Origin: a virus | Lineage: Duplodnaviria > Caudoviricetes | Direction: 5' to 3' (one strand) | DNA: 54,779 bases | IMG/VR virus record: IMGVR_UViG_3300046751_000253 | Coordinates: 1 to 54,779 of that record | Shown: in pieces, positions 2,388 through 35,312 of the stretch | Numbering within the stretch: the stretch's first letter is position 1 | How the letters are laid out: every line of letters starts with the position of its first letter | Position numbers and translations under genes: made by a program | Notes under the pieces: generated by a model | Database searches by the model: none | Seen by the model: only the letters and a program-made list of their open reading frames with translations | What the model was told of the DNA's origin: nothing

Positions 2388-4892
2388 ATGGCTATAGAAA
2401 AAAATCCAAATGACCCTATTTCTAAAGAAAATGTTATTCAACTAAATATAGAAAATCAAGAAGAATTAGACTTTCCGGGTGTAAACTTTGAAGTAGACCC
2501 TGAAACAGGAGACTTAGAAGTAGAATTTGAAACTGAGTTTGATTTGACCGATGTAGATAACATTGTAGAATTTAATATTGAAGACGAATTTTATACTAAC
2601 CTTGCAGAGCAAATCGAAGAAGACGAGCTTATTCGCATTGGTGAAGAAGTATACGAAAAATACGAAGCAGACAAAGAGTCACGGGCAGAATGGGAATCCA
2701 TGTTTGAACGAGGCTTTGACCTGCTTGGTTTGAAACTGGAAGAAACTACAGAACCTTTTGAAGGTGCGGCAACTGCTGTCCACCCACTACTCATTGAGTC
2801 TGCAGTTAAATTCCAGAGCCGTGCATCCCAAGAACTATTTCCTTCCAGTGGCCCAGTTAAAGCTCAGGTTCTTGGTGATGCTACGGTTGAAAAACAACGT
2901 CAAGCAAACCGTGTTCAGAACTTTATGAACTATCAGCTAACTGATATGATGCCTGAATACTTTGACGAGTTTGAACGTATGTTGTTCCATTTACCACTTA
3001 TTGGTAGCTCATTCAAAAAGATTTATTATGATGGTTCAGTAGAACGCCCTGTCAGTGAGTTTGTACCTATTGACCAGTTCTATGTGTCTTACTATGCAAC
3101 AGACCTAAGACGGGCAGACAGATATACTCATGTATTATATCGTAGCCCTCGTGAGATTGCCAATGCAATGTACTCAGGCATGTATGCAGAAATGGACTTA
3201 CCAGATGCATATATTCCACAGCAGTCAGAACTTACACAAAAGATGGACACAGTACTTGGCTTGTCTCCTTCTTCTGATACAGATATGCAGTATGTTCTTC
3301 TTGAACAGCATTGTTATCTTGATATTGAAGGACATGGTTATGAGTGTCCTTATATTGTAACCATTGAAGAGTCAACACGTAAAGTATTGTCTATACGTAG
3401 AAACTGGAATGAAGACGATAAGAACAAAGAAAAGAAAATGTTCTTTACACATTATCGTTTTGTTCCGGGATTTGGTTTCTATGGTCTAGGACTTATTCAC
3501 TTCCTTGGTAACCTTACAATGTCTGCCACTGCAGCTATGCGTAATCTTATTGATGCAGGACAGTTTGCTAACTTGCCCGGTGGCTTCAAAGCAAAAGGTG
3601 TACGTATTGTAGGTGACAATGACCCAATTGCTCCGGGTGAATTTAAAGAAGTAGAAGCAACAGGTATGGACTTAACACGTTCTATTGTACCTTTGCCTTA
3701 CAAAGAACCGTCAGGCACATTATTCCAGATGCTTCAGTTTGTCGCAGGAGCAGGTCAAAAGTTTGCAGACACTACAGAACAAGTTATTACAGAAGGTTCT
3801 AACTATGGTCCTGTAGGCACAACTATGGCCTTACTTGAAGCATCAAGTAAATTCTTTAGTGCAATCCATAAACGACTTCACAAATCACAACGTGACGAGT
3901 TTAAAATTCTTGCACGTATTAACTATGAAAGCTTACCACCAAAATATCCTTATGACGTACCCGGTGTAAGTGAGGAAATATTTAAGCGTGACTTTGATGG
4001 TCGTGTGGATGTCTTGCCTGTCTCTGACCCTAACATTCCTTCTTCGGCACACAGGCTGATGATGGCACAGATGGTTATGCAGCAAGCACAGCAATCTCCT
4101 CCCGGAATGTTTAACATGGAAGAACTTAACCGTACTTTACTTAATGCGGCAAACATTCCTAACTTGGATAAGATACTTCCAGAAAAACCACAGGCACAGG
4201 CACTTGACCCTGTAACAGATATTGAAGCAGCAACTAAAGGTCTGCCAATTAAAGCCTTTGCAGGTCAGAACCATGATGCACATATTCAGATTAAGAGTAT
4301 GTTCCTACAAGACCCTGCTAATGGTGCAAATCCAATTATGCAACGTGTAGCACCTATCTTACAAGCTAACATACAAGAACATGTAGTTATGAAGTATGAA
4401 GAGCAAGTAAATGGTCTGACACGTCAAATGATGGCAGAAGCTCCAGCAGGTGACCCTAATGCTCAGAACCCTCAAGTAATTGAGCAGGTAATGATGGCGG
4501 CTGCACAGCAGGTAACACAAGCAAACATGGCTGCTGCACAGAAAGGTCCATCACCTGAACAGGCAATGGTTCAGATGGAAGCACAACGTCTTCAGATTGA
4601 ACAGGAAAAGGTACAGGCACAGCTTGCTAAAGAAGCAACTGAGGGTGCTCTAAAGAACCGTGACCTTGACTTGAAAGAACAGAAGCTGGCACTTGATGCA
4701 TATAAGATTGGTGCAGAAGGTACACTAAAAGCAGACGAAAAAGAAAAAGACAGAAATGCCAAGGCAGCAATTAAGGCAGTAGAACTTCTTGCAGACATGG
4801 TTAAGCATGAAGATAATCTTGAAAGCTCAGAAGCTGCAAAAGCAATTGATGTCATTAGTAAAATGATTTCAGATACAAAGGGAGCTAAGTAA
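2388..4892 (+). CDS. Portal protein with long C-terminal coiled coil
   Basis: 834 aa after terL; PFEGA..VHPLL, PGFGFYGLGLIH, PVGTTMALLE motifs typical of this portal family; Q/A-rich helical tail. Confidence 0.9.
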   Translation: MAIEKNPNDPISKENVIQLNIENQEELDFPGVNFEVDPETGDLEVEFETEFDLTDVDNIVEFNIEDEFYTNLAEQIEEDELIRIGEEVYEKYEADKESRAEWESMFERGFDLLGLKLEETTEPFEGAATAVHPLLIESAVKFQSRASQELFPSSGPVKAQVLGDATVEKQRQANRVQNFMNYQLTDMMPEYFDEFERMLFHLPLIGSSFKKIYYDGSVERPVSEFVPIDQFYVSYYATDLRRADRYTHVLYRSPREIANAMYSGMYAEMDLPDAYIPQQSELTQKMDTVLGLSPSSDTDMQYVLLEQHCYLDIEGHGYECPYIVTIEESTRKVLSIRRNWNEDDKNKEKKMFFTHYRFVPGFGFYGLGLIHFLGNLTMSATAAMRNLIDAGQFANLPGGFKAKGVRIVGDNDPIAPGEFKEVEATGMDLTRSIVPLPYKEPSGTLFQMLQFVAGAGQKFADTTEQVITEGSNYGPVGTTMALLEASSKFFSAIHKRLHKSQRDEFKILARINYESLPPKYPYDVPGVSEEIFKRDFDGRVDVLPVSDPNIPSSAHRLMMAQMVMQQAQQSPPGMFNMEELNRTLLNAANIPNLDKILPEKPQAQALDPVTDIEAATKGLPIKAFAGQNHDAHIQIKSMFLQDPANGANPIMQRVAPILQANIQEHVVMKYEEQVNGLTRQMMAEAPAGDPNAQNPQVIEQVMMAAAQQVTQANMAAAQKGPSPEQAMVQMEAQRLQIEQEKVQAQLAKEATEGALKNRDLDLKEQKLALDAYKIGAEGTLKADEKEKDRNAKAAIKAVELLADMVKHEDNLESSEAAKAIDVISKMISDTKGAK

Positions 4893-6044: not shown

Positions 6045-6461
6045 ATGCAAGCAGTTGCTATGGAAAAAACAATTCTTAACGATGCGTGGAATACAAATGA
6101 AGAAGTTCCAGACCCAGACGTACTTCCAGTAATTCCGGGTTACCACTTACTAATTCGTCCTGTTTCTGTAAAGCAGGAAACTAAAGGTGGTATTATTCTT
6201 CCAGATTCTACTAGAGATGATATTGCATATCTTACAACTGTAGGTAAAGTACTTGCAGTAGGTAAGGATGCATATAAAGATAATGATAGGTATCCTAATG
6301 GTCCTTGGTGTAAAGAAGGTGATTATGTCTGTTATGGTAAACATTCAGGTCAAAAGTTTTTCTACAAGGGTGTAAGGCTTATTCTTTTATTAGATGACCA
6401 GATATCAATGATAGTGGATGACCCAAAAGAATTAGACCCTACTTATAATTTATCTAATTAA
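6045..6461 (+). CDS. groES: Co-chaperonin GroES-like (Cpn10)
   Basis: ETKGGIILPD mobile loop, GKVLAVG, PWCKEGDYV.YGK.SG. Confidence 0.9.
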   Translation: MQAVAMEKTILNDAWNTNEEVPDPDVLPVIPGYHLLIRPVSVKQETKGGIILPDSTRDDIAYLTTVGKVLAVGKDAYKDNDRYPNGPWCKEGDYVCYGKHSGQKFFYKGVRLILLLDDQISMIVDDPKELDPTYNLSN

Positions 6462-6560: not shown

Positions 6561-7559
6561 ATGTCTGAAGAATGGACAACGGTAAACACTTCCAATGCCG
6601 AGAATGAGGAAGAGAAAGTTGAGTTTGAAATTGAGAGTGAACTATCCGAAGGTACTTCCGAAGAGGAAGCCGTACAAACGAAGCAACAGCAAAATGCAAA
6701 CGCAGTCAATACTGGGGAATATGCTGAACAACAAAGCACTAGCTCAGAGGGTAAATCAGATGTATCTGAAGAGCCTCAATCAGGAGCACAAAAACGGATA
6801 AGACAATTAGTTCGTCAAAAGAAAGAACGTGAAGAACAAATTGAAACTCTGATGACTCGCCAACTAGAGTTAGAGGAAAGATTAAAAGCTCAACAGCAAG
6901 AGATTAAAACTTCACTACAGAAGAACTTTGAATCTGCTGAAGCACAGATTAATAGTCGTATTGAACTAGCTGAAGATGCTTATAAACAAGCTCTTGAGTC
7001 AGGTGATACAGATAGAATTGTAGCTGCACAAAAGAACTTGAATAAAGCTCAAGGTGATGCAACAACTCTTAATGTTACACGTAATCAATATAGACCACAG
7101 ATTGAAGAACAAGAAGAAGTTCGTCAGCCACAAAGACAACCAGCACAACAATCAGCAGAGTATGATAGGTTGGCAGTTGAGTGGGCAGGACGTAACCCTT
7201 GGTTTGGTCAAGACAATGTAATGACAACATTAGCTCTTGAGATTGACCAAGAATTAAAATCAGAAGGTTACGATTCTAATGACGAAGACTTCTATAAAGA
7301 GATTGACACTCGCCTTCGCAGCAAATATCCGCAGCGTTTTGGTGGAGAGGTTCAAGAGCAACGTGAGCAGGAAACGTCAACTCCTGCCCAAGTGGTCGGT
7401 GGAGCATCACGCACTTCATCAGCCTCGTCAGGTAAGAAGGTACGTCTAACAAAAGAAGATGTACGTCTTGCAGAAAAGTGGGGTATACCCTTGGAACAGT
7501 ATGCAGCCGAGAAGCTAAAAGTAGATACAGCAGACGGTGAATATACTTCAGTTTACTAA
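6561..7559 (+). CDS. Putative capsid scaffolding protein
   Basis: Acidic coiled coil, W..RNPWFG, C-terminal LT.E....A.KWGIPLEQYA; upstream of capsid genes. Confidence 0.7.
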   Translation: MSEEWTTVNTSNAENEEEKVEFEIESELSEGTSEEEAVQTKQQQNANAVNTGEYAEQQSTSSEGKSDVSEEPQSGAQKRIRQLVRQKKEREEQIETLMTRQLELEERLKAQQQEIKTSLQKNFESAEAQINSRIELAEDAYKQALESGDTDRIVAAQKNLNKAQGDATTLNVTRNQYRPQIEEQEEVRQPQRQPAQQSAEYDRLAVEWAGRNPWFGQDNVMTTLALEIDQELKSEGYDSNDEDFYKEIDTRLRSKYPQRFGGEVQEQREQETSTPAQVVGGASRTSSASSGKKVRLTKEDVRLAEKWGIPLEQYAAEKLKVDTADGEYTSVY

Positions 7560-8116: not shown

Positions 8117-8728
8117 ATGACTTCAACATTAGCGTTGTCTGGCTTCCGTCCTTCCCGCAAACGTGGCAACAACCCAAACAATCAGGGTCAGAATGAATAC
8201 CCTATTGCTTCAGGTTATGCCGCTAACATTTTTACAGGCGATTTGGTCCGTATTAATGCAGGAAACTTGGAAGTCATCACCACTGTAACTGAGGTAGCTC
8301 AAGGCGTTTTCATGGGCTGTCGTTACGTTGCAGATGGCGAACAAAAATTTAGCAAGTACTGGCCTTCAGGTACATCAGCCACAGATGCATATGCATTGGT
8401 AGCTGACGATGCCCGTACAGTATTTGAGGTACAAGCAGATGCTTCTGTAACCGCAGGTGACCTGTACGGTGCTCAGAACTTTGCTGTAACACTTGGTACT
8501 GGTTCTACCTTTACAGGTATGTCTGGTCACGGCATTGCAGGTGCAACTCGTACCTCAACAATTGCAATGGCTCGTGCTCTTGACCCTGTAGATGAACCGG
8601 GTAACGATGTTGCAAATGCTGCAGAAAATGCATATCTAAAATTGAATGTGCGTTTGGTTCAGCATACTGACAACTTCCACGATGCAATCGTAACTGCGCC
8701 TACTTCTGGTGCAGACCCAGCATTCTAG
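8117..8728 (+). CDS. Putative capsid decoration/minor capsid protein
   Basis: 203 aa, GFRP, IFTGDLV, GVFMGCRY, FEVQAD; immediately upstream of MCP. Confidence 0.65.
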   Translation: MTSTLALSGFRPSRKRGNNPNNQGQNEYPIASGYAANIFTGDLVRINAGNLEVITTVTEVAQGVFMGCRYVADGEQKFSKYWPSGTSATDAYALVADDARTVFEVQADASVTAGDLYGAQNFAVTLGTGSTFTGMSGHGIAGATRTSTIAMARALDPVDEPGNDVANAAENAYLKLNVRLVQHTDNFHDAIVTAPTSGADPAF

Positions 8729-8745: not shown

Positions 8746-9684
8746 ATGGCGATAAATAGAGCAAGTATCTCTAAAGAACTTCTCCCCGGCCTAAACGCAG
8801 TGTTTGGAATGGAATATGGGGAAGTTGCAGACGAACATGCACCGTTGTTTGAGACAGAGAACTCAGACCGTGCATTTGAAGAAGAAGTGCTTTTCACAGG
8901 CTTCGGTACTGCACCTACTAAAGGTGAAGGTGCTGCTGTTGCTTATGACGATGCACAAGAAAGCTACACAGCACGTTACACCCACGAAACTGTTGCATTG
9001 GCATTTGCCGTAACAGAAGAAGCAATGGAAGATAATCTTTATGATACCTTCGCAAAGCTTCGTGCTCGTGGCTTGGCTCGTGCAATGGCTAATACAAAGC
9101 AGGTTAAAGCTGCTGATGTATTTAACAATGGTTTCAGCACATCATATGTGGGTGGCGATGGACAGCCTATGTTCTCAGCTTCACACCCAACTATGTCAGC
9201 AGGTAACCAATCAAATACATTTGGTGCAACTGACCTGTCAGAAGCTGCTCTTGAGTCTGGCCTTATCCAGATTTCAAAAGCAAAAGATGACCGTGGTATT
9301 CTGATTGGTTTGCAAGCTAAGTCTTTGCATGTACCTTCAGACTTGGCGTTTACTGCTGACCAGATTCTGAACAGCACAATGTCAACAACCATTGGTGTTA
9401 ACCCAACAACTGCAGCTAACGGTGCAACAAATGTTAATGACATTAACTCAATCCGTAATCAAGGTTTGATTCCGGGTGGTTTCTTTGTCAACAGACGTTT
9501 CACAGATACAGATGCTTGGTTCATTAAGACAGATTGTCCTAATGGTACAAAGATGTTTGTACGTGCTCCACTGCAGACAAAAATGGAACCCGATTTTGAT
9601 ACAGGTAACCTTCGCTTTAAAGCTCGTGAGCGTTATAGCTTTGGCTGGTCAGATTGGCGTGGCTTCTACGGTTCTTCAGGCTAG
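8746..9684 (+). CDS. Major capsid protein (HK97 fold, Mu gpT-like family)
   Basis: MAINRASISKELLPGLNAVFG...FEEEVLFTGFG...DFDTGNLRFKARERYSFGWSDWRG. Confidence 0.9.
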   Translation: MAINRASISKELLPGLNAVFGMEYGEVADEHAPLFETENSDRAFEEEVLFTGFGTAPTKGEGAAVAYDDAQESYTARYTHETVALAFAVTEEAMEDNLYDTFAKLRARGLARAMANTKQVKAADVFNNGFSTSYVGGDGQPMFSASHPTMSAGNQSNTFGATDLSEAALESGLIQISKAKDDRGILIGLQAKSLHVPSDLAFTADQILNSTMSTTIGVNPTTAANGATNVNDINSIRNQGLIPGGFFVNRRFTDTDAWFIKTDCPNGTKMFVRAPLQTKMEPDFDTGNLRFKARERYSFGWSDWRGFYGSSG

Positions 9685-9803: not shown

Positions 9804-10109
9804 ATGGCTTCAAATATACGTAACGCTTTTGTTACAGGCTCTGGCGCATTGCTAGATTCATTAACCAGTACAACTGTTGCAGATACACGAATCAAAGGTG
9901 TTACCTTTTCTGGTATTGGTACGTTTGTAATTACTGGTTCTCAAACAGATGAGTATGGAAACTTAAAGGGAAACAATATTAAATTTGTGGGTACTTCTGT
10001 AGTAGACGCAAGTGATATTATGATTCCTGACTTTGGTGTTAAAATGTATGGACCAGTAAAAGTTTCTGCGCCTACATCAGCAGCAACAGTAGCAGTTTAC
10101 TATGGCTAA
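9804..10109 (+). CDS. Hypothetical virion protein
   Basis: 101 aa beta-rich ORF, GGAG RBS. Confidence 0.7.
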   Translation: MASNIRNAFVTGSGALLDSLTSTTVADTRIKGVTFSGIGTFVITGSQTDEYGNLKGNNIKFVGTSVVDASDIMIPDFGVKMYGPVKVSAPTSAATVAVYYG

Positions 10110-10758
10110 TTATTCTTACCTTGTAGACGATATTACTCAAGCTGCAGAGAATGATGGAACAGAGTTTGCTAACTATATTCCTAAAATGATTAATCGTGCA
10201 GAAGAGAGACTAACTCGTGACCTTGATGATTACGGGCTGGTGTCTTATACTTCTGTTGCAATTCCTGCAGGTGCTAATCAAGTTACCCTACCTTCTGGTA
10301 CACGTATACTAAAAAACTTTAACATTACTGCAAACTCAACACGAATTAATTTGTTGCCTAGAACCGATGAATACATAAAAGATTATTGGCCTGTTGCAGC
10401 AAGCACAGGTACTCCTCAGTATTATGCTCGTAGAAACAACACAACGGTACTCATTGCACCTACTCCTGTTTCTACCTTTGATGGAGAGATAGTACATATA
10501 TCAAGGCCAACTACTTTAGCAGCAGCTTCACCAAACAATTACTTTTCAGATTTTTGTTATGACGCATTATTTAATGCAAGTATGGTAGAGGCAATGGTAT
10601 TTCAAAAAGATTATAATGCAGTAAATCTATTTGAACAGAGATATATGCAAGCAGTAGCAACATTGCAAAACCAAGCACGTAGAACAAGACGGGATGATAT
10701 GCAAGCTCCTGCAAGTAGAGCAGGTGCAGACAACCCAGTTATAGCAGGGAGTAACTAA
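10102..10758 (+). CDS. Putative head-tail adaptor
   Basis: I..AEERL.RDL, GTPQYYA, IAPTP motifs of podovirus adaptor proteins. Confidence 0.7.
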   Translation: MANYSYLVDDITQAAENDGTEFANYIPKMINRAEERLTRDLDDYGLVSYTSVAIPAGANQVTLPSGTRILKNFNITANSTRINLLPRTDEYIKDYWPVAASTGTPQYYARRNNTTVLIAPTPVSTFDGEIVHISRPTTLAAASPNNYFSDFCYDALFNASMVEAMVFQKDYNAVNLFEQRYMQAVATLQNQARRTRRDDMQAPASRAGADNPVIAGSN

Positions 10759-11858
10759 TGATTAGTAAAGCACTAAAAACAGCAGCAAAGGCACTAACCA
10801 AGAAAAAGGGTAGACCTAAAGTTGACAAGCGAAAAACAAAAGGTAAACGTAAAGCACAATCTGCTGCACGTCAAAAAACATTTCAAGCAAAGCAAACAGA
10901 GGCTGCAGAGAAGGCAGGAACATCGAAAGCTGCTCTCTCGCAGGAACGAGCTATTGAACGTAAATCACAAACTATCCGTAATCAAGATATAGCTGGTACT
11001 ACTAAAACTAATGCTATTAAAATTCTACAGGAAAGCAAAGGCAAACTTACTGCTGCAGAAGCAATTAAAAAGGCAGAGTCTTTAGGTAAAACTAAAATGC
11101 AAAAAGTTATGTCTATGGTTAGGAAAGATACTGCTAGGCAGAAAAGAAAAGGACTTCTTTCAGGTTTGTCTGAAGCTCAAATGAAAGAACGTAGAAATCT
11201 TATTTCTCAAAAGCTAAAAGAAATGAAAACACAAGGCCAAGCTAAAAAAGTAATTGCCGGAAGAACACTTTCTCTTACTCCTGAAGGTGAAAAAATTCTT
11301 AAACAAAAAGGCGGTATTGATAAAATTATTGCTGAGTCTGGACCTACTGGTACTAAGAAAAATAAATACTTGTATGAAGGTGCAAATGAAACTTTACCTG
11401 CAAAAGGTGGTGGCATAGATACCAAAGGTAAGACAGGTAAAGAAGCTAGCGAAATGAAACGTAAAGCTTATCAGTCTATGTCTAAAGGTGAGAAGTTAGA
11501 ATTTATTCGTAAGCAGTTTGCACGAGGTTATACTAATAAACAGCTTGAAGACATTATGTATAAGCCTAAAACTGCAAGTCAAAAGAAAGCCAAAGCAAGT
11601 ATTATTCAACGAATGAAGACTGCTAAAAACCAAGGCTATCCTTTTAAGACACAAAGAGAAAAAGGATTTGATAAAAAATCTTTTGATGACATTATGAAAA
11701 GTTTTGGTACTGGTAAAAGTACAGCAGGTATTGTAGCTAATACTCCTGTAGGTAGAAAAGCAGGAGGTACAGTAGGTACAAAGAAATCAAAAACAAGTCC
11801 TCGTGGTTGCGGTAAAGCATTGCGTGGTTATGGTAAAGCAATGAAAGGAAAAATGTAA
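10758..11858 (+). CDS. Lys-rich basic protein, putative internal/DNA-binding
   Basis: 366 aa, very K/R-rich, C-terminal RKAGGTVG...RGCGKALRGYGKAM. Confidence 0.75.
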   Translation: MISKALKTAAKALTKKKGRPKVDKRKTKGKRKAQSAARQKTFQAKQTEAAEKAGTSKAALSQERAIERKSQTIRNQDIAGTTKTNAIKILQESKGKLTAAEAIKKAESLGKTKMQKVMSMVRKDTARQKRKGLLSGLSEAQMKERRNLISQKLKEMKTQGQAKKVIAGRTLSLTPEGEKILKQKGGIDKIIAESGPTGTKKNKYLYEGANETLPAKGGGIDTKGKTGKEASEMKRKAYQSMSKGEKLEFIRKQFARGYTNKQLEDIMYKPKTASQKKAKASIIQRMKTAKNQGYPFKTQREKGFDKKSFDDIMKSFGTGKSTAGIVANTPVGRKAGGTVGTKKSKTSPRGCGKALRGYGKAMKGKM

Positions 11859-13108
11859 TGGCTATTCCATTAATTCTAGCATTAGGTGGTACTGTAGTAC
11901 GAGCAGTTGCTCCACGAGTAATACAACAACTAATGCGTCAAGGAGCAAAACGAGCTACCACACAGCAAATTAAAAAGGCAGGTGGTGAAAAGGGTATGTC
12001 TACTATTACTTCGGTAAAGCAAGCAAAGAACTTAAAACCTACTCGTCCAAGTTTAAAGCCTTCAACTAAAGTTGTAAAACCTAAATCAGGTATAACTTCT
12101 CAACAAAGAAGTGCATTATCCGATATGGGTGGACAAACTGTTAAGCTATCTAAGCCTACAGGCGGTGCAGGTAGAGCTAACTTAAAACCTAAAGCTCCTT
12201 CAATGAAGCCTACAACACCTTCAATGAAACCTAAGAGTCCTTCTATGAAGCCTCAACGTCCTTCATTAAAACCTAAACCTAAAGTTGTAAAACCTAGAGT
12301 ATCCGCACCGAAAGCTCCACCTTCACGTCCTTCAGTTCCATCAGGTGGTTCTCGTTTTACAGGATTTCCTCGTAGACCTACACCACCTAAAGCTCCACCT
12401 TCACGTCCTATTTCAAGGACACAACGTGCAGCAAATGTAGGTAAAGCTGCAGTAGCTTCAGGAGTAGCTGCATCAATGATACCTAATAAAAAAGAAGGAC
12501 CTAAAACATCTAAAGCAGCAATACCCACACCTAAACCACGTCCTAAAACTAAAGAGGGTGGTCCGGGTCGTAAGTTCGCTAAACCTTCTGAGGGTAAAGA
12601 CCCACGGGGTAATCAGATTAAAGCTACTCCGGGTAAAATGATTATGCCTAAGAAGTTTGACGGTGGTTACAACTCAAAGACACAAAAGCTTGTTAACATT
12701 ACTGTTGATGGTAAAAAAGCTACCTATGAAATTCCAAAGGGTATGACAACTAAACAAGCTAAAAGTCTTTTAACTAGTACTGCTAAAAAGAAAGCAGGTG
12801 GTACACCGGGCAAGTATAAAATGAAACCAGCACCTATGCCTAAAATACCACCACGTAAAAAGAAACCGGGTTTTAAAGCGAAACCAGCACCTATGCCTAA
12901 AATACCACCACGTAATCCTGAATTTAAAGGTAAGCCAGCAATTAAAAAAACGCCTACAAAATTAAAAGGATTTTCTAAACTACCAGAAAAGGTACAAAAG
13001 AAAATAAGTCCTAAACTTGCTGCTAAATACGAAACAGGTGGTTCAATTAAGTCTGGGGTTGCACGTCAAGTAAAAGGTTTTGGAGCAGCACGAAGACCTA
13101 AAAAATAA
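11858..13108 (+). CDS. Pro/Lys-rich repetitive basic protein (histone-H1-like composition)
   Basis: 416 aa with PS(L/M)KP, PKAPPSRP and KPAPMPKIPPR repeats; YETGGSI...KGFGAA tail. Confidence 0.8.
   Translation: MAIPLILALGGTVVRAVAPRVIQQLMRQGAKRATTQQIKKAGGEKGMSTITSVKQAKNLKPTRPSLKPSTKVVKPKSGITSQQRSALSDMGGQTVKLSKPTGGAGRANLKPKAPSMKPTTPSMKPKSPSMKPQRPSLKPKPKVVKPRVSAPKAPPSRPSVPSGGSRFTGFPRRPTPPKAPPSRPISRTQRAANVGKAAVASGVAASMIPNKKEGPKTSKAAIPTPKPRPKTKEGGPGRKFAKPSEGKDPRGNQIKATPGKMIMPKKFDGGYNSKTQKLVNITVDGKKATYEIPKGMTTKQAKSLLTSTAKKKAGGTPGKYKMKPAPMPKIPPRKKKPGFKAKPAPMPKIPPRNPEFKGKPAIKKTPTKLKGFSKLPEKVQKKISPKLAAKYETGGSIKSGVARQVKGFGAARRPKK
12823..12915 (+). repeat. 36-bp intragenic direct repeat (12823-12858, 12880-12915)
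   Basis: gaaaccagcacctatgcctaaaataccaccacgtaa occurs twice, period 57 bp. Confidence 0.9.
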
Positions 13109-13124
13109 AGAGAAGGGCAGGTAA

Positions 13125-13439
13125 ATGAAAAAACCTACTAAGTCTCGTAATCCTGTAGCTAAGTCTTTAGCTAATAGATTATATCAACCTAAAGTAGTAA
13201 AACCTAAAAAAGGTAAAGGCTCTTACACCCGTAAAGGTGTGAGGGCTTTAGCCTCTGGTGGTAAGCCCAAATCTACAGTAAACAAAGCAGGTAATTATAC
13301 TAAACCTACTATGCGTAAAAAATTATTTGAACGTATTAAGGCAGGAAGTAGGGGTGGTGCTTCAGGTCAATGGAGTGCTCGTAAAGCTCAGATGCTAGCC
13401 CAAGCTTATAAAAAAGCAGGTGGTGGTTATAAAGACTAA
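13125..13439 (+). CDS. ArfA-like N-terminus fused to N-half of a DUF5872-like domain
   Basis: NPVAKSL...KKGKGSYTRKG, then ALASGG, then YTKP.MRK...GG..GQWSARKAQMLA..YKKAGGGY. Confidence 0.7.
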   Translation: MKKPTKSRNPVAKSLANRLYQPKVVKPKKGKGSYTRKGVRALASGGKPKSTVNKAGNYTKPTMRKKLFERIKAGSRGGASGQWSARKAQMLAQAYKKAGGGYKD

Positions 13440-13867
13440 TGCCAGCTAAGTTAAGTGAAAATACTGAACTACAAATGCCGTTGAGGAATATTATCTCAAT
13501 GGTTATTGCTACATCTGTAGCTACGTGGGCATATTTTGGTTTAACTGAAAAAATTACTTCACTACAAACAAACGTAACTATGATGCAAGCAGACTTAGAA
13601 CAAAATACTGACTTTCGTATTAAGTGGCCTCGTGGTGAGATGGGTAGTTTACCAGCAGATAATGAACAGTTTATGTTGATTGAACATATAGCTAGTGAGT
13701 TAGAAAAGTTAGCAACAGAAATAGAAGAAGGTAGAGCACCTTACGACCAACAACAAAAATTAACATTAGAGTTTTATGAAAAGCGGATAGCAAGTCTTGA
13801 AGAGCAAATTGAAAAATTAAAAGATGCTCAAATGGAAATGACATATAGGAATATATTAAATGATTGA
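13439..13867 (+). CDS. Membrane-anchored coiled-coil protein
   Basis: N-terminal TM (IISMVIATSVATWAYFGL) then coiled coil. Confidence 0.75.
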   Translation: MPAKLSENTELQMPLRNIISMVIATSVATWAYFGLTEKITSLQTNVTMMQADLEQNTDFRIKWPRGEMGSLPADNEQFMLIEHIASELEKLATEIEEGRAPYDQQQKLTLEFYEKRIASLEEQIEKLKDAQMEMTYRNILND

Positions 13868-14078
13868 AACAATAATGGTGTTGCTTTTATATGTCTCAGG
13901 AGATATAATAGAATATAAAGGTTATGATAATATTTCTGACTGTCTATCTACTAAACGTGAGATAGAAAGAAATGTAGGTGAGCATTTAAAAAGTGCAAGA
14001 TATGCTTGTGAAATGCGTAAGGTAGAACTAGATAAAAACTCTGAAGGTAAATATTTTGTTGTGAATATTGTGGAGTAA
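13860..14078 (+). CDS. Small hypothetical protein
   Basis: 72 aa, hydrophobic N-terminus, two Cys. Confidence 0.65.
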   Translation: MIETIMVLLLYVSGDIIEYKGYDNISDCLSTKREIERNVGEHLKSARYACEMRKVELDKNSEGKYFVVNIVE

Positions 14079-14081
14079 AAA

Positions 14082-14519
14082 ATGTTAGCAGAAATAGCCG
14101 CAGCCAATGCCGCATTTGCAGTAATTAAAACGGCTATTAGTAATGGACGTGAGATTGCAGATGTAGCAGGAAAAGTAGGTGAGTATGTTAATGCAACAGA
14201 AAGCTTACGAAGAAAAGCAGACAAAAAGAAAAGACGTACAGGCTCTGCAGATTTAGAAGAGTTTATGCATCTTGAAAAACTAAAACAACAGGAAGAAGAA
14301 TTAAAACAATTAATGATATATACTGGTAGACCGGGGCTATGGCATGATTGGATTAGATTTCAAGCACAAGCAAGAAAGCAACGGATGCTAGAGGCAGCAG
14401 CAAGAAAAAAACAAATTAAACAATTAATAGAAACTTTAACTATTAGTAGTATTTTAATTGTAGGGTTCTTTGGATTAGCATTAATTGTTTGGTGGGCTTT
14501 TTATCTAAAGTCATTGTAA
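14082..14519 (+). CDS. Coiled-coil protein with C-terminal TM helix
   Basis: MLAEIAAANAAF...; C-terminal ILIVGFFGLALIVWWAF. Confidence 0.75.
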   Translation: MLAEIAAANAAFAVIKTAISNGREIADVAGKVGEYVNATESLRRKADKKKRRTGSADLEEFMHLEKLKQQEEELKQLMIYTGRPGLWHDWIRFQAQARKQRMLEAAARKKQIKQLIETLTISSILIVGFFGLALIVWWAFYLKSL

Positions 14520-14542
14520 ATATAAACATTTAGTGATATAAT
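14514..14542 (+). promoter_or_regulatory. sigma70-like promoter with extended -10
   Basis: TTGTAA-17-TATAAT with TGn. Confidence 0.65.
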
Positions 14543-14552
14543 AGGAACTATC

Positions 14553-14813
14553 ATGGCATTAAAGAAATCACAAAGGAGCTTAAAGGCTTGGACAAAACAA
14601 AAGTGGAGAACCAAGAGTGGTAAGCCCTCTACACAAGGTTCAAAGGCTACGGGTGAACGCTATCTCCCAGCAAAGGCAATTAAAGCGTTATCCCCAAAAG
14701 AATATGCTAAGACTACGGCAGCTAAAAGAAAAGGAACAGCAAAGGGAAAGCAGTTCGTTAAGCAACCTAAGACTGTCGCAAAGAAAGTCAAACGGTATAG
14801 GAAGGTAAAGTAA
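14553..14813 (+). CDS. Basic protein, C-half of a DUF5872-like domain
   Basis: QRSLKAWTKQKW.TKSG...ERYLPAKAI..LS..E...T...KR.G...GKQFV. Confidence 0.7.
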   Translation: MALKKSQRSLKAWTKQKWRTKSGKPSTQGSKATGERYLPAKAIKALSPKEYAKTTAAKRKGTAKGKQFVKQPKTVAKKVKRYRKVK

Positions 14814-15175
14814 TGGCTACTAAAAGTAAATATCCCGGAGTAAAAAGATTACCATCAGGAAGGATTGAATATCGTGGTACAACATTTGCAGGATTTAATA
14901 AACCTCGTAAATCAACTCGTCCAGAAAAGAAAGGGATGGTTCTTGCAAAAGAGGGAGATACAGTTAGAGTTATTCACTTTGGACAAAAAGGATATGGTCA
15001 TAACTATTCTGATACGGCACGTAAGTCTTTTAAGTCTAGGCATGGTAAGAATATTAAAAAGGGTAAACTATCTGCTGCTTACTGGGCTGATAAAGTTTTG
15101 TGGGCTGGTAAGAGTGGGAGCAAGAAAAGCCCACCAAAAACTCAGAAGCATAAGAAACTAGGAAGGAAATCATAA
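14813..15175 (+). CDS. Conserved basic phage protein
   Basis: VIHFGQ.G...ARKSFKSRH...LSAAYWADKVLW. Confidence 0.75.
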   Translation: MATKSKYPGVKRLPSGRIEYRGTTFAGFNKPRKSTRPEKKGMVLAKEGDTVRVIHFGQKGYGHNYSDTARKSFKSRHGKNIKKGKLSAAYWADKVLWAGKSGSKKSPPKTQKHKKLGRKS

Positions 15176-15483
15176 TGGCTACTAAGTATGATAAAATGAC
15201 AACTGCACAGTTAAAATCTATTTTAAAAAAGAATGGTATTAATTTTCCAACTAAAGGAATAGATAAAGATACATTAGCTGATGCAGTACATCAGTTTGAT
15301 ACTTCTGGTATGGTAAAAAAATTAGCAGGTGGTTCAGTAGGTAGAGCAAACTATATGGATAAGAAAAAGCCAAAAGAAAAGCCTATGTATGACCCACGTA
15401 AGACTACAGTAAAACCTAAGAAAAAAACTGTTAAGAAAAAAGCTGGTGGTTCAATTGGATGCTCTCATAACAGGCTTTATTAA
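15175..15483 (+). CDS. HeH/LEM/SAP-like basic protein
   Basis: MTTAQLKSILKKNGINFP...KDTL; two AGGS(V/I)G motifs; ends SHNRLY. Confidence 0.65.
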   Translation: MATKYDKMTTAQLKSILKKNGINFPTKGIDKDTLADAVHQFDTSGMVKKLAGGSVGRANYMDKKKPKEKPMYDPRKTTVKPKKKTVKKKAGGSIGCSHNRLY

Positions 15484-15575
15484 TGGCTATAAATCGTTCA
15501 TCCGTTGGGCAACAAATAACCAAACCCGGAAAGAAAAAAAGAAAATCAAAGCCCGTAAAAAGAAAGGGTAAATAA
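15483..15575 (+). CDS. 30-aa basic peptide resembling the MCP N-terminus (below ORF-track cutoff)
   Basis: MAINRSSVGQQITKPGKKKRKSKPVKRKGK; TAATG-coupled and fills the gap to 15578. Confidence 0.7.
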   Translation: MAINRSSVGQQITKPGKKKRKSKPVKRKGK

Positions 15576-15577
15576 GT

Positions 15578-16249
15578 ATGGCTACTTCAGGTACATATAA
15601 CTTCAATATGGATATAGACGAAGTTATCCAAGAAGCAACAGAAATGATAGGTGGTGAGCAGACACTAGGACATGAACCTAAGTCTGCCCGTAGGTCTATT
15701 AATCTATTGCTACAAGATTGGCAAAACCGTGGTGTAATGCTATGGACTGCTAATACTTCTGCAGTTACACTTACAACTAGTGTTACTACTTTTACTTTGT
15801 CTTCTGCAACTATTGATGTGCTTGAAGCTGTACATAATCGTGACGATAGAGACATTCAACTTGAACGTATCTCTATGCAGGAATATCTTAAAATCCCTAA
15901 CAAAAGCCAGACAGGACGTACTACTCAGTATGCAGTGAGACATGAACGTGGTAATCCTGTTGTGCATCTTTGGCCTATTCCAGAAAACTCTACTGACCAA
16001 GTTAAACTAGAACTAGTATCTTACATGGAAGATGTAAATAAATCTGCAATCCAAAATGCAGATATTTCTCGTAGGTTCTTACCTTGTCTAACTGCAGGAT
16101 TAGCTTACTATATGTCTATGAAACGTCCTAATGTAGAAGCAGGACGTATTACTATGATTAAACAAGAATATGAAGAAAGACTACAACGTGCTATGGACGA
16201 AGATAGAGAACGAGTTAGTATTTTCTTAAAGCCAAGAGTTATGGTATAA
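15578..16249 (+). CDS. Second adaptor/tail-tubular-like protein
   Basis: MATSGT..F, ARRSINLL..WQNRG, IPNK.Q.GR.TQY, LWPIP, RFLPCL.AGLAYY. Confidence 0.75.
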   Translation: MATSGTYNFNMDIDEVIQEATEMIGGEQTLGHEPKSARRSINLLLQDWQNRGVMLWTANTSAVTLTTSVTTFTLSSATIDVLEAVHNRDDRDIQLERISMQEYLKIPNKSQTGRTTQYAVRHERGNPVVHLWPIPENSTDQVKLELVSYMEDVNKSAIQNADISRRFLPCLTAGLAYYMSMKRPNVEAGRITMIKQEYEERLQRAMDEDRERVSIFLKPRVMV

Positions 16250-34252: not shown

Positions 34253-34566
34253 TGTCATTAATAGAAATGGAAACTAATACACAACAACTTAATAGGTTGT
34301 TAAAAGCATTAGGCATGGAAGCAAAGCCTGTAAAGAAAGCTCCATCTGGAAAAGTAATTGATACTAATCCTATTAAAGATAGAGCATATAAAGTATCTAA
34401 GGGTAATGCTAAACCTAAGAAGGTTACTAAACCTAAAACTAAACCTAAGAAACAGAAACCTTCAAAGTCTACATCTACTTTGTTTGGTATTAGTTTTAAT
34501 AAAGCAGGTGGTACAGTAGGTAGTAAGAAAAATAAAAAACAATCTGGACATAATAGGTTATACTAA
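34252..34566 (+). CDS. Lys-rich basic protein
   Basis: 104 aa; FNKAGGTVG and terminal GHNRLY. Confidence 0.7.
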   Translation: MSLIEMETNTQQLNRLLKALGMEAKPVKKAPSGKVIDTNPIKDRAYKVSKGNAKPKKVTKPKTKPKKQKPSKSTSTLFGISFNKAGGTVGSKKNKKQSGHNRLY

Positions 34567-35312
34567 TGGGTACTCCAAGTTCAATGACACGTACAGGCAA
34601 ACATGAGCCTTGGGAACTTCAGGTTTCTAGGGGTCAGATTGCTTTTCATAAACGTCTATTAAAGTTTGGCTACAATGCTTTAATTAATGATACAGAAGAA
34701 ACCATATGGGAAGGTGGTGGTATTTATTCTTATCCTTCTTCTGCTTTAGCTATGACCGTCACAAGTGCCTCTGGTGCTACAGATAATGGTGTTAAAATTA
34801 CTATACAGGGTTTGGATGCTGATTATAATGAACAAAGTGTTGAGGTAACTCTTGCTGGTTCTGGTACAGCAACTACAACGGAAACATTTATTCGTGTCTT
34901 TCGTGCCTTTGTGTCAGGCTCAACTGCTCCTGTAGGTGCTATAACAATTGCTAATGGTGGAACAACCTATGCTTATATTAATGGAGACAATCAAACACTG
35001 ATGGCTTTATGGACAGTTCCTGCTGGATATACGGCTTACTTAGTTCAAACAGATGTAACAGTAATGACTGAAGCTAATAATAAGTTTGGTAAAGTAAGAG
35101 TTATTACAAGAGAACCCGGTGGAGTATTCAGAACACAGGATAATTTTTCAGCTAATAATATAGATATTGTTCGTTCCTATGCTTATCCACTACCTATTCC
35201 AGAAAAAACAGATATAGAGTTTCGTGGTATTGCAAGTAGCTCAAACGCATTATTACAAGTATCTGCTACCTTTGAAATTATTTATATTGAAAACGAAATA
35301 CCACCTAATTAA
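34566..35312 (+). CDS. Hypothetical virion protein
   Basis: 248 aa beta-rich; LQVSRGQI, KFGYN, ETIW, IQGLD, WTVPAG, IPEKTDIE. Confidence 0.7.
   Translation: MGTPSSMTRTGKHEPWELQVSRGQIAFHKRLLKFGYNALINDTEETIWEGGGIYSYPSSALAMTVTSASGATDNGVKITIQGLDADYNEQSVEVTLAGSGTATTTETFIRVFRAFVSGSTAPVGAITIANGGTTYAYINGDNQTLMALWTVPAGYTAYLVQTDVTVMTEANNKFGKVRVITREPGGVFRTQDNFSANNIDIVRSYAYPLPIPEKTDIEFRGIASSSNALLQVSATFEIIYIENEIPPN

Follow-up and report, generated by a model that had tools for sequence, protein, structure and literature searches.

The window analysed here is IMGVR_UViG_3300046751_000253, a 54,779-bp stretch that constitutes a complete IMG/VR genome of a marine phage (Duplodnaviria; Caudoviricetes) with direct terminal repeats. 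Among its structural genes lies a very short open reading frame (ORF; 15483-15575, + strand) whose 30-residue product, MAINRSSVGQQITKPGKKKRKSKPVKRKGK, carries a net charge of +12. This ORF is a real gene. Its product opens with a motif resembling the N-terminus of the phage's own major capsid protein (MCP) and continues into a polybasic tail, and the likeness between the two N-termini exceeds chance. As judged from alignments, this N-terminal tag co-varies, imperfectly, with the MCP N-terminus of the same phage across three clades of relatives. These features suggest that the protein is probably a small head-associated DNA-binding peptide.

The gene is fitted closely between its neighbours. 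Its ATG overlaps the stop codon (TAA) of a 102-residue ORF (15175-15483) by a single base, forming a TAATG junction, and its own TAA ends 2 nt ahead of the ATG of a tail/portal adaptor gene at 15578; the translational coupling and the filled intergenic gap described in an earlier sequence-only reading of this DNA are both borne out. The MCP-mimic part, MAINRSSVGQQITKPG, occupies codons 1-16 (15483-15530, + strand) and is followed by the polybasic tail, KKKRKSKPVKRKGK (15531-15572, + strand), the last codons of which include the GGG of the adaptor gene's likely ribosome-binding site. The small gene's own ribosome-binding site is weak (AGG only). Between 14500 and 16500, Rfam gave nothing at E<=1 and promoter-like or terminator-like sites occurred without excess. 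The small protein matched no Pfam or PHROGs family (no PHROG at E<=0.001), and ESM Atlas returned its exact sequence and otherwise unnamed clusters with scores of at most 0.87. The gene had been called hidden and below the cut-off of the ORF track. It is present in the ORF list of the window, and 'hidden' holds only in a relative sense: the protein is in ESM Atlas, and its homologues in cultured relatives are annotated as hypothetical proteins.

The MCP gene (8746-9684, + strand) begins ATGGCGATAAATAGA and encodes a 312-residue protein of the HK97 fold (Pfam Phage_capsid_4, 5.8e-16; phrog_371, 3.3e-20) that begins MAINRASISKELLPG; the imitated N-terminus is MAINRASISKELLPGLNAVFG, and the start of the MCP is nearly invariant across 24 IMG/VR loci. 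Since MA starts 18 of the 37 window genes and MAI starts five of them, the first three residues carry little weight, which falls instead on residues 4-13. A profile built from the first 16 residues of 23 distinct relatives was scanned against 50,285 six-frame 16-mers, and its best non-self match was the MCP N-terminus, with the Met residues aligned (score 21.3, next 17.9; mean -13.8, standard deviation 7.1). In the reverse scan, 2,295 ORF starts (ATG, GTG or TTG, at least 20 residues, both strands) were compared with MCP residues 2-13, and the small ORF was the best non-self match (31, next 15; mean -8.8, standard deviation 6.9). The same type of scan in relatives without the small gene gave best scores of 13-17, and in the genome of Pelagibacter phage HTVC023P, a distant named relative, the N-terminal region of the small ORF was likewise the best non-self match to the phage's own MCP start. 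Translation and both scans thus confirm the capsid N-terminus copy and basic tail first noted from the sequence alone. The codons of the two genes differ from R5 onward and, among relatives, residues shared within one genome use the same codon in 64 of 128 cases. Since only half of the shared residues have matching codons, the likeness lies at the protein level, as the sequence-only reading had proposed from the window, and the MCP 5′ end was rejected as the source of a recent gene conversion.

Conservation was assessed in IMG/VR with the adaptor as bait, keeping the best 80 of 167 relatives (73-100% identity). An ORF reading M[AS]I[NSGT]R..[VI].QQ[IV].K followed by a basic tail was present within ~210 nt upstream of the adaptor in 72 of the 80 loci, which encode 41 distinct small proteins of 27-82 residues; a lack of conservation, which would have counted against the sequence-only reading, is thus not what is seen. 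At this level of individual loci, as opposed to whole genomes, the other eight had no small ORF: one has just 224 nt upstream, and seven have a different gene before the adaptor. In those seven (L053-L057, L060 and L065) the preceding gene is a homologue of the window's 248-residue protein (34566-35312), with the same ...EIIYI.NE... C-terminus, and this replacement of the basic block indicates, from gene order, a rearranged structural module.

Within the window clade I3, R5, Q11 and K14 never vary, even though 2-3 codons are in use for each of them. The pooled ratio of nonsynonymous to synonymous polymorphism (pN/pS) across codons 2-16 was 0.44 in frame, compared to 2.1 and 1.05 in the two shifted frames, and the frame of the small gene is under purifying selection. 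The family motif is M-[AS]-I-x-R-x-x-[VI]-x-Q-Q-[IV]-x-K with a polybasic tail (~27-90 residues in total); the window protein fits it, and the family profile finds the small gene in the window's own genome at 1.1e-12. A profile search of public metagenome proteins, in which scoring was confined to the 8,000 candidates with the most words in common (first row of the query alignment, 45 residues), yielded at least 110 clusters at E<=1e-3, all unnamed or 'hypothetical' and none with a Pfam domain, on contigs reaching ~47-61 kb. A fused long form of 256 residues, encoded on a single 1.6-kb contig, was set aside as a probable gene-call artefact. Two family members come from named phages, HTVC023P gp50 (MAITRGQISKQVEGKLRGARDEKKKKKRV...) and gp63 of Roseobacter phage CRP-901 (MNRASFGKLMSKGEQKMMYGKKKPSQPVKKK...), each annotated as a hypothetical protein. 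In HTVC023P-like and CRP-901-like podophages the small gene lies in the structural module, just as the window copy lies between structural genes upstream of the adaptor. Its exact position varies. It is three genes upstream of the adaptor in HTVC023P and ~2.7 kb upstream of the MCP gene, near GroES, in the CRP-901 clade, and among these clades adjacency to the adaptor is restricted to that of the window.

The N-terminal tag follows the MCP of its own clade. Three clades were sampled with their own MCPs as bait; the HTVC023P and CRP-901 sets, and a fourth set introduced below, comprise the matches listed, and the counts drawn from them apply among those matches. The clade motifs are R-x-S-[I/V] for the window, R-x-Q-[L/M] for HTVC023P and R-A-S-F for CRP-901. 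In the window clade the MCP begins MAINRASIAKELL (MAINR[ASG]SI[AS]KELLPGL) and the small protein MAI[NSG]R[SGA]S[VI]GQQI. The corresponding starts in the HTVC023P clade are MAISRSQLVKELE (MAISR[SAGQ]QL[VA]KELEPGL) and M.I[SGT]R[SG]Q[MIL]..Q[IVL], with one small protein (locus L103) beginning MVISRGQISRQLEPGLG. In the CRP-901 clade, where a small ORF was found in 56 of 80 loci, they are MAMNRASFAKML (MAMNRA[SNQ]FAKMLEPGL) and MNR[AST]SF[GPS][KSA]L[MI], the Met of the small protein aligning with M3 of the MCP. When 56 distinct small-protein N-termini (including one dubious 21-residue ORF from the CRP-901 set) were scored against the MCPs, the MCP of the same clade was best in 53 and tied in three, and that of another clade was preferred in none.

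Pairing the two genes within loci gave a consistent picture. The pooled sample held 128 loci with both genes and 79 distinct pairs, including the fourth set, which carries the KKKWS...GFSEKAHCA subfamily of small proteins. At position 8, an MCP F was paired with F in 25 of 25 distinct pairs, L with M, I or L in 34 of 36, and I with V or I in 17 of 18, giving agreement of residue class in 76 of the 79. Position 3 paired M with M (23/25) and I with I (41/54), while at position 7 S was paired with S in 26 of 34, Q with Q in 22 of 38 and N with N in one of six. The mean own-pair score was 26.5, compared to 18.0 (standard deviation 0.79) for shuffled pairs, and none of 2000 shuffles reached the own-pair mean; because relatives share sequences and the statistic ignores kinship, this count is not a probability.

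Behind this one N-terminal motif the basic tails differ, ranging from 12 to ~65 residues among relatives and varying in sequence as well. The types distinguished are a poly-K stub of 12-14 residues, which includes the window protein; a tail of ~30 residues ending RKNRLY; a conserved ...ARLKARGLVARTSGKYKGKKKDLG module; a ...GKLRGA.DEKKK...NPLSRTF form; and, in a large subfamily, KKKWS.KRK..INC..P[KR]GFSE[KR]AHCA. A single motif joined to such different tails would look like an address tag with exchangeable cargo. Within the KKKWS subfamily (proteins P0005-P0100, loci L253-L331) the W and two Cys are invariant and the His is near-invariant, and this module may form a small metal- or DNA-binding knuckle. 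A separate observation concerns C-termini: several small basic proteins end ...NRLY (or GGR[IV][YF]) directly before a TAATG junction, at 15472-15483 and 34555-34566 in the window and in many related loci. Proteins with NRLY-type ends include the 102-residue and 104-residue proteins of the window and ~45-residue forms of the small protein in relatives. This ending may serve as a docking motif at the C-terminus; alternatively, it may be no more than the next gene's AGG ribosome-binding site and spacer translated into residues.

The AlphaFold2 model of the MCP (pLDDT, the predicted local distance difference test, 78) contains a helix at residues 5-24 (pLDDT 69-87 there), and that of the small protein a low-confidence helix at residues 5-12 (pLDDT ~68). 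Both proteins place hydrophobic residues at positions 3, 8 and 12 and close the stretch with Pro-Gly. Foldseek matched the MCP model generically to HK97-fold capsids and encapsulins (best E 1.7e-7; template modelling score at most 0.52), and phmmer against PDB returned nothing for either the MCP or the adaptor.

A candidate partner for the tag is encoded upstream of the MCP. This scaffold-like protein (6561-7559, + strand; 332 residues) is acidic, with a net charge of -25, and contains a coiled coil. Alignments with relatives, which carry the annotation 'kinesin-like', revealed a conserved C-terminal motif, VRLTKEDVRLAEKWGIPLEQYA, the end reading V[KR]LT..QV.IAKKLGVPLEEYAK. It matched no Pfam or PHROGs family; the conserved C-terminal end in an acidic coiled-coil protein makes a scaffold role plausible. 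A complex prediction containing two copies of the MCP, residues 195-332 of the scaffold-like protein and the 30-residue peptide scored 0.20 and 0.14 against a mark of 0.32, in runs made without controls, and speaks neither for nor against binding.

We tentatively favour, at a little short of an even chance, a model in which the tag of the small protein takes the place of the MCP N-arm helix, either on the end of the scaffold or at an N-arm site of the shell, while the basic tail binds DNA. The protein would then be a small two-module accessory protein of head assembly or of the virion. Module 1 (residues 1-13/16) would be a short amphipathic helix, ending in Pro-Gly, that reproduces the beginning of the MCP N-arm helix and serves as an address or docking tag, binding whatever the MCP N-arm binds during head assembly. 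It could bind to the scaffold-like protein at its C-terminal end, or to the MCP itself in the groove that accommodates an N-arm. Docking on the scaffold end would carry the peptide into the procapsid, by analogy with the tags of T4 and P1 internal proteins (available sections of PMC9024508), and by either route it would come to lie within the (pro)capsid or against its inner surface. Module 2, the polybasic tail that varies in length and sequence, would be disordered and would attach to the packaged DNA or else to an acidic surface, for instance that of the portal. In 80alpha, P22 and phi29 an N-arm helix is contacted by the ends of the scaffold (PMC12749128, in the sections available); because scaffold ends dock on N-arm helices in these other phages, the scaffold-like protein is by analogy a good candidate partner, equal to or better than the N-arm sites at the portal vertex that had been suggested initially. 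The initial view of the protein as an N-arm mimic with a basic tail stands as a description, in line with its conservation and tracking. Its presence in the capsid, its binding partner, its copy number and its binding of DNA are points that we can only infer.

Among known systems, T4 gp61.1 and MEP401 gp37 are closest to the window protein by design, the capsid-targeting tags of T4 and P1 and small basic capsid peptides are closest by proposed function, and mimicry of the CpmB type is closest by principle. MEP401 is an OM43 phage of 43 kb belonging to the Zobellviridae, a lineage differing from that of the window (according to the available sections of PMC10580990). Its gp37, a polybasic protein of 55 residues annotated as hypothetical, begins (M)TFTTANTLSFIHKEQYGKKKKK... 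against MAHNTANTTAFIESQQY in its own MCP, with the pattern TTANT..FI...QY common to the first 17 residues of both, and no other non-self sequence of that genome matches the MCP start as well (36 vs 12). Like the window protein, gp37 is tiny and polybasic, copies the N-terminus of its own MCP and is encoded by a gene beside the adaptor gene. Unlike the window gene, which precedes the adaptor, gene 37 overlaps the end of the adaptor gene; it also belongs to another lineage, encodes another motif and starts with TTG. In T4, gp61.1 (54 residues; annotated as hypothetical) aligns with residues 57-93 of gp23 with 17 of 37 positions identical (E 2e-9, calculated for this one comparison), and its terminal stretch is charged and rich in Lys. 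It too is a small protein copying an N-terminal segment of its own MCP, but the copied segment lies behind the leader and around the maturation site of gp23 rather than at residue 1, its tail is of mixed charge where that of the window protein is polybasic, and T4 possesses a protease and core system whereas none was recognised in the window. Neither MEP401 gp37 nor T4 gp61.1 is related in sequence to the window protein, which has no PHROG match; the likeness is one of design and not of descent, and as compared here the small MCP-copying design appears to have arisen more than once. A broader proposition would be that unrelated tailed phages (HTVC023P/CRP-901-type marine podophages, MEP401 and T4) repeatedly evolved tiny N-arm mimics that dock in N-arm or scaffold sites, for example unpaired ones around the portal, and tether or organise DNA through a basic tail, forming a general and unrecognised class of arm mimics internal to the capsid; we consider this unlikely.

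The phiX174 J protein and adenovirus mu are small basic DNA-associated capsid peptides and shown virion components. The window protein resembles them in being very small and highly basic, and in the analogous arrangement proposed for it, with one end holding the shell and the other binding DNA. It shares no homology with them, and their capsid-binding ends are not known to be MCP mimics. In the case of T4 and P1, N-terminal tags load proteins into the heads (PMC9024508, available sections). These resemble the window tag in being short N-terminal tags on otherwise unrelated cargo or tails. They differ in that the same sections do not report them as copies of the MCP N-terminus, and in that their loading was demonstrated experimentally while the window tag is known from sequence alone; their cargo consists of otherwise unrelated proteins, and that of the window protein of a short basic tail only. 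Finally, CpmB of SaPI1 and the 80alpha scaffold compete for the N-arm helix of the MCP (PMC12749128, available sections). As in the case proposed here, the mimicry concerns the contact of N-arm helix and scaffold during assembly of an HK97-fold capsid. CpmB, the product of a phage parasite, mimics the scaffold side, whereas the window protein is encoded by the phage itself and copies the N-arm side.

Several observations weigh against docking in place of the N-arm. The small gene is, from its distribution, accessory and dispensable in some relatives, with no small-protein match anywhere in DSL-LC04, HTVC027P, 023Pt_psg01 or Pag-Yong1. Tracking rests on three related clades and few independent events, and it has mismatches, an MCP I3 being paired with M3 in 13 of 54 distinct pairs, Q7 with S7 in 15 of 38 and N7 with S in five of six. 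The expectation in the sequence-only reading that the two N-termini covary is therefore upheld across the three clades but incompletely at position 7, where strict covariation was rejected, many HTVC023P-clade small proteins having S7 though their MCP has Q7. Pfam and PHROGs revealed neither a prohead protease nor a core of the T4 type in the window, where several head proteins remain without assignment, and so the capsid-targeting sequence (CTS) route of T4 cannot simply be transferred. As the PDB and Foldseek searches gave no close relative, there is no relative's structure to inspect for the peptide. In addition, the weak ribosome-binding site argues against a high copy number, and at +12 per copy, against ~110,000 DNA phosphates, the protein would neutralise a small share of the charge unless hundreds of copies were present.

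Other explanations assign the copied N-terminus a different use, or none. A free N-arm mimic might compete with the MCP for the scaffold, or cap sites on the MCP, and so time or limit shell assembly; in a variant, it would interfere with the assembly of a co-infecting relative, the basic tail holding the peptide on nucleic acid. The competition of SaPI1 CpmB with the 80alpha scaffold for the N-arm helix provides a precedent (PMC12749128, available sections), and the patchy, accessory distribution of the gene and the tuning of the tag to the MCP of its own clade also speak for it. It leaves the varied polybasic tails without explanation, however, and the small gene sits in the late structural operons of all clades; taking the two variants jointly, we judge regulation of assembly improbable, if the least so of these alternatives. 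Ranking next, and likewise improbable, is that the likeness has no function of its own. In that case the product would be a small basic DNA- or RNA-binding protein, or a translational-coupling spacer, with a 5′ end derived from a duplicated MCP 5′ end or shaped by selection for initiation efficiency. The frequent MA and MAI starts in this genome are compatible with this, as are the near-match in DNA between the first six codons of the MCP and of the small ORF at some loci (ATGGCTATTAATCGTTCA vs ATGGCTATAAATCGTTCA) and the overlap of the tail with an A-rich spacer and the adaptor's ribosome-binding site. Initiation efficiency does not account for the clade-specific F8, Q7 and M3, and the codon differences at half of the shared residues, the retention of the motif in three different genomic positions under purifying selection, and the same design reached by unrelated phages with other sequences all speak against it.

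The third alternative is a special case of tag docking, in which the tag fills the partnerless N-arm sites where the portal replaces a penton and the tail contacts DNA or the acidic portal, at ~5-12 copies. In the window clade the gene directly adjoins the adaptor gene and is part of a translationally coupled operon, and the overlap of MEP401 gene 37 with the end of its own adaptor gene extends this adjacency to two lineages; the weak ribosome-binding site is in keeping with few copies, and the portal is strongly acidic (net charge -52). Set against these points is the varying position of the gene, which in HTVC023P is three genes away from the adaptor and in the CRP-901 clade stands near GroES, upstream of the MCP. 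We place this reading below the previous two, as a slim prospect. The least probable of those weighed is a shared processing or recognition signal, in which both N-termini are substrates of one enzyme or chaperone (a head protease, an N-terminal modifying enzyme, or GroEL with the phage GroES). The small protein would then give rise to a free basic peptide, comparable to adenovirus mu or the internal peptides of T4. T4 gp61.1 does copy the region of gp23 around the maturation site, and the gp23 record notes cleavage by gp21; a phage GroES is also encoded in all these phages. In the window, by contrast, Pfam and PHROGs detected no protease family between the portal and the MCP, the 203-residue protein next to the MCP is fast-evolving and not protease-like, and the copied stretch starts with residue 1 of the MCP, not behind a cleavage site.

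The small gene is set in a podophage structural module on the + strand, delineated by Pfam and PHROGs scans of the window proteins, which also contains tail and ejection proteins. The module begins with the large terminase (754-2343, + strand) and the portal (2388-4892, + strand). GroES (Cpn10; 6045-6461, + strand; Pfam 7.1e-11) adjoins the head genes and is kept in all relatives examined; it is a core gene of HTVC023P-type phages (PMC9599517, available sections). Directly upstream of the MCP lies the 203-residue protein (8117-8728), which matched an unnamed PHROG only. It evolves fast among relatives yet keeps an N-terminal FG[LF]RP...Q..Y.I motif, and may possibly be a capsid decoration protein; its candidacy as a protease was set aside, its fast evolution and lack of a family being more like those of a decoration protein. 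Two SU10_adaptor paralogues are encoded ~5 kb apart, the first at 10102-10758 (+ strand; Pfam 4.9e-20) and the second, the tail/portal adaptor next to the small gene, at 15578-16249 (+ strand; Pfam 1.1e-10; supported by tblastn matches to an annotated adaptor).

Between these paralogues (10758-15575) runs an unbroken series of very basic proteins: 366 residues (net charge +64), 416 (+88), 104 (+27), 86 (+27), 120 (+27), 102 (+17) and the 30-residue ORF (+12), interrupted by three small non-basic ORFs only. Taken together, they may represent a group of internal or ejected proteins that associate with DNA. Residues 16-38 of the 104-residue protein (13125-13439) match Pfam ArfA (33.4 bits against a curated cut-off of 25.5; E 3.1e-8), alternative ribosome-rescue factor A, an unexpected family for a phage structural region. 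The 102-residue protein (+ strand), which ends NRLY and whose stop overlaps the start of the small gene, gave weak HeH/SAP matches under the Pfam cut-offs. The nearest named relatives of the window are distant. For the adaptor these are HTVC023P (38% identity), DSL-LC04 and CRP-901, and MCP identity to named relatives reaches 51-55%. Megablast against GenBank phages gave no close DNA relative of the window, and blastn gave short patches only.

In the literature searched, no description of small mimics of an MCP N-terminus was found, nor any study of T4 gp61.1, for which the only papers found are two genome descriptions. The main-text passages searched in the papers on HTVC023P-type phages, CRP-901 and MEP401 (PMC9599517, PMC10149686 and PMC10580990) neither mention the small gene nor report virion proteomics. 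The small protein is thus probably a kind of peptide not yet described in print. Tags that target or anchor proteins in phage heads are already known; if docking by arm mimicry is confirmed, it could define a new class of them. N-arm docking, if true, would represent a new mechanism by which proteins are loaded into HK97-fold shells or anchored there, and would offer a natural peptide handle for cargo in phage capsids. It would also provide a rule, readable from sequence, for finding head-internal proteins in uncultured phages, namely small ORFs that copy the N-terminus of the MCP. For T4 gene 61.1, in the best-studied of phages, the comparison offers a function that can be tested.

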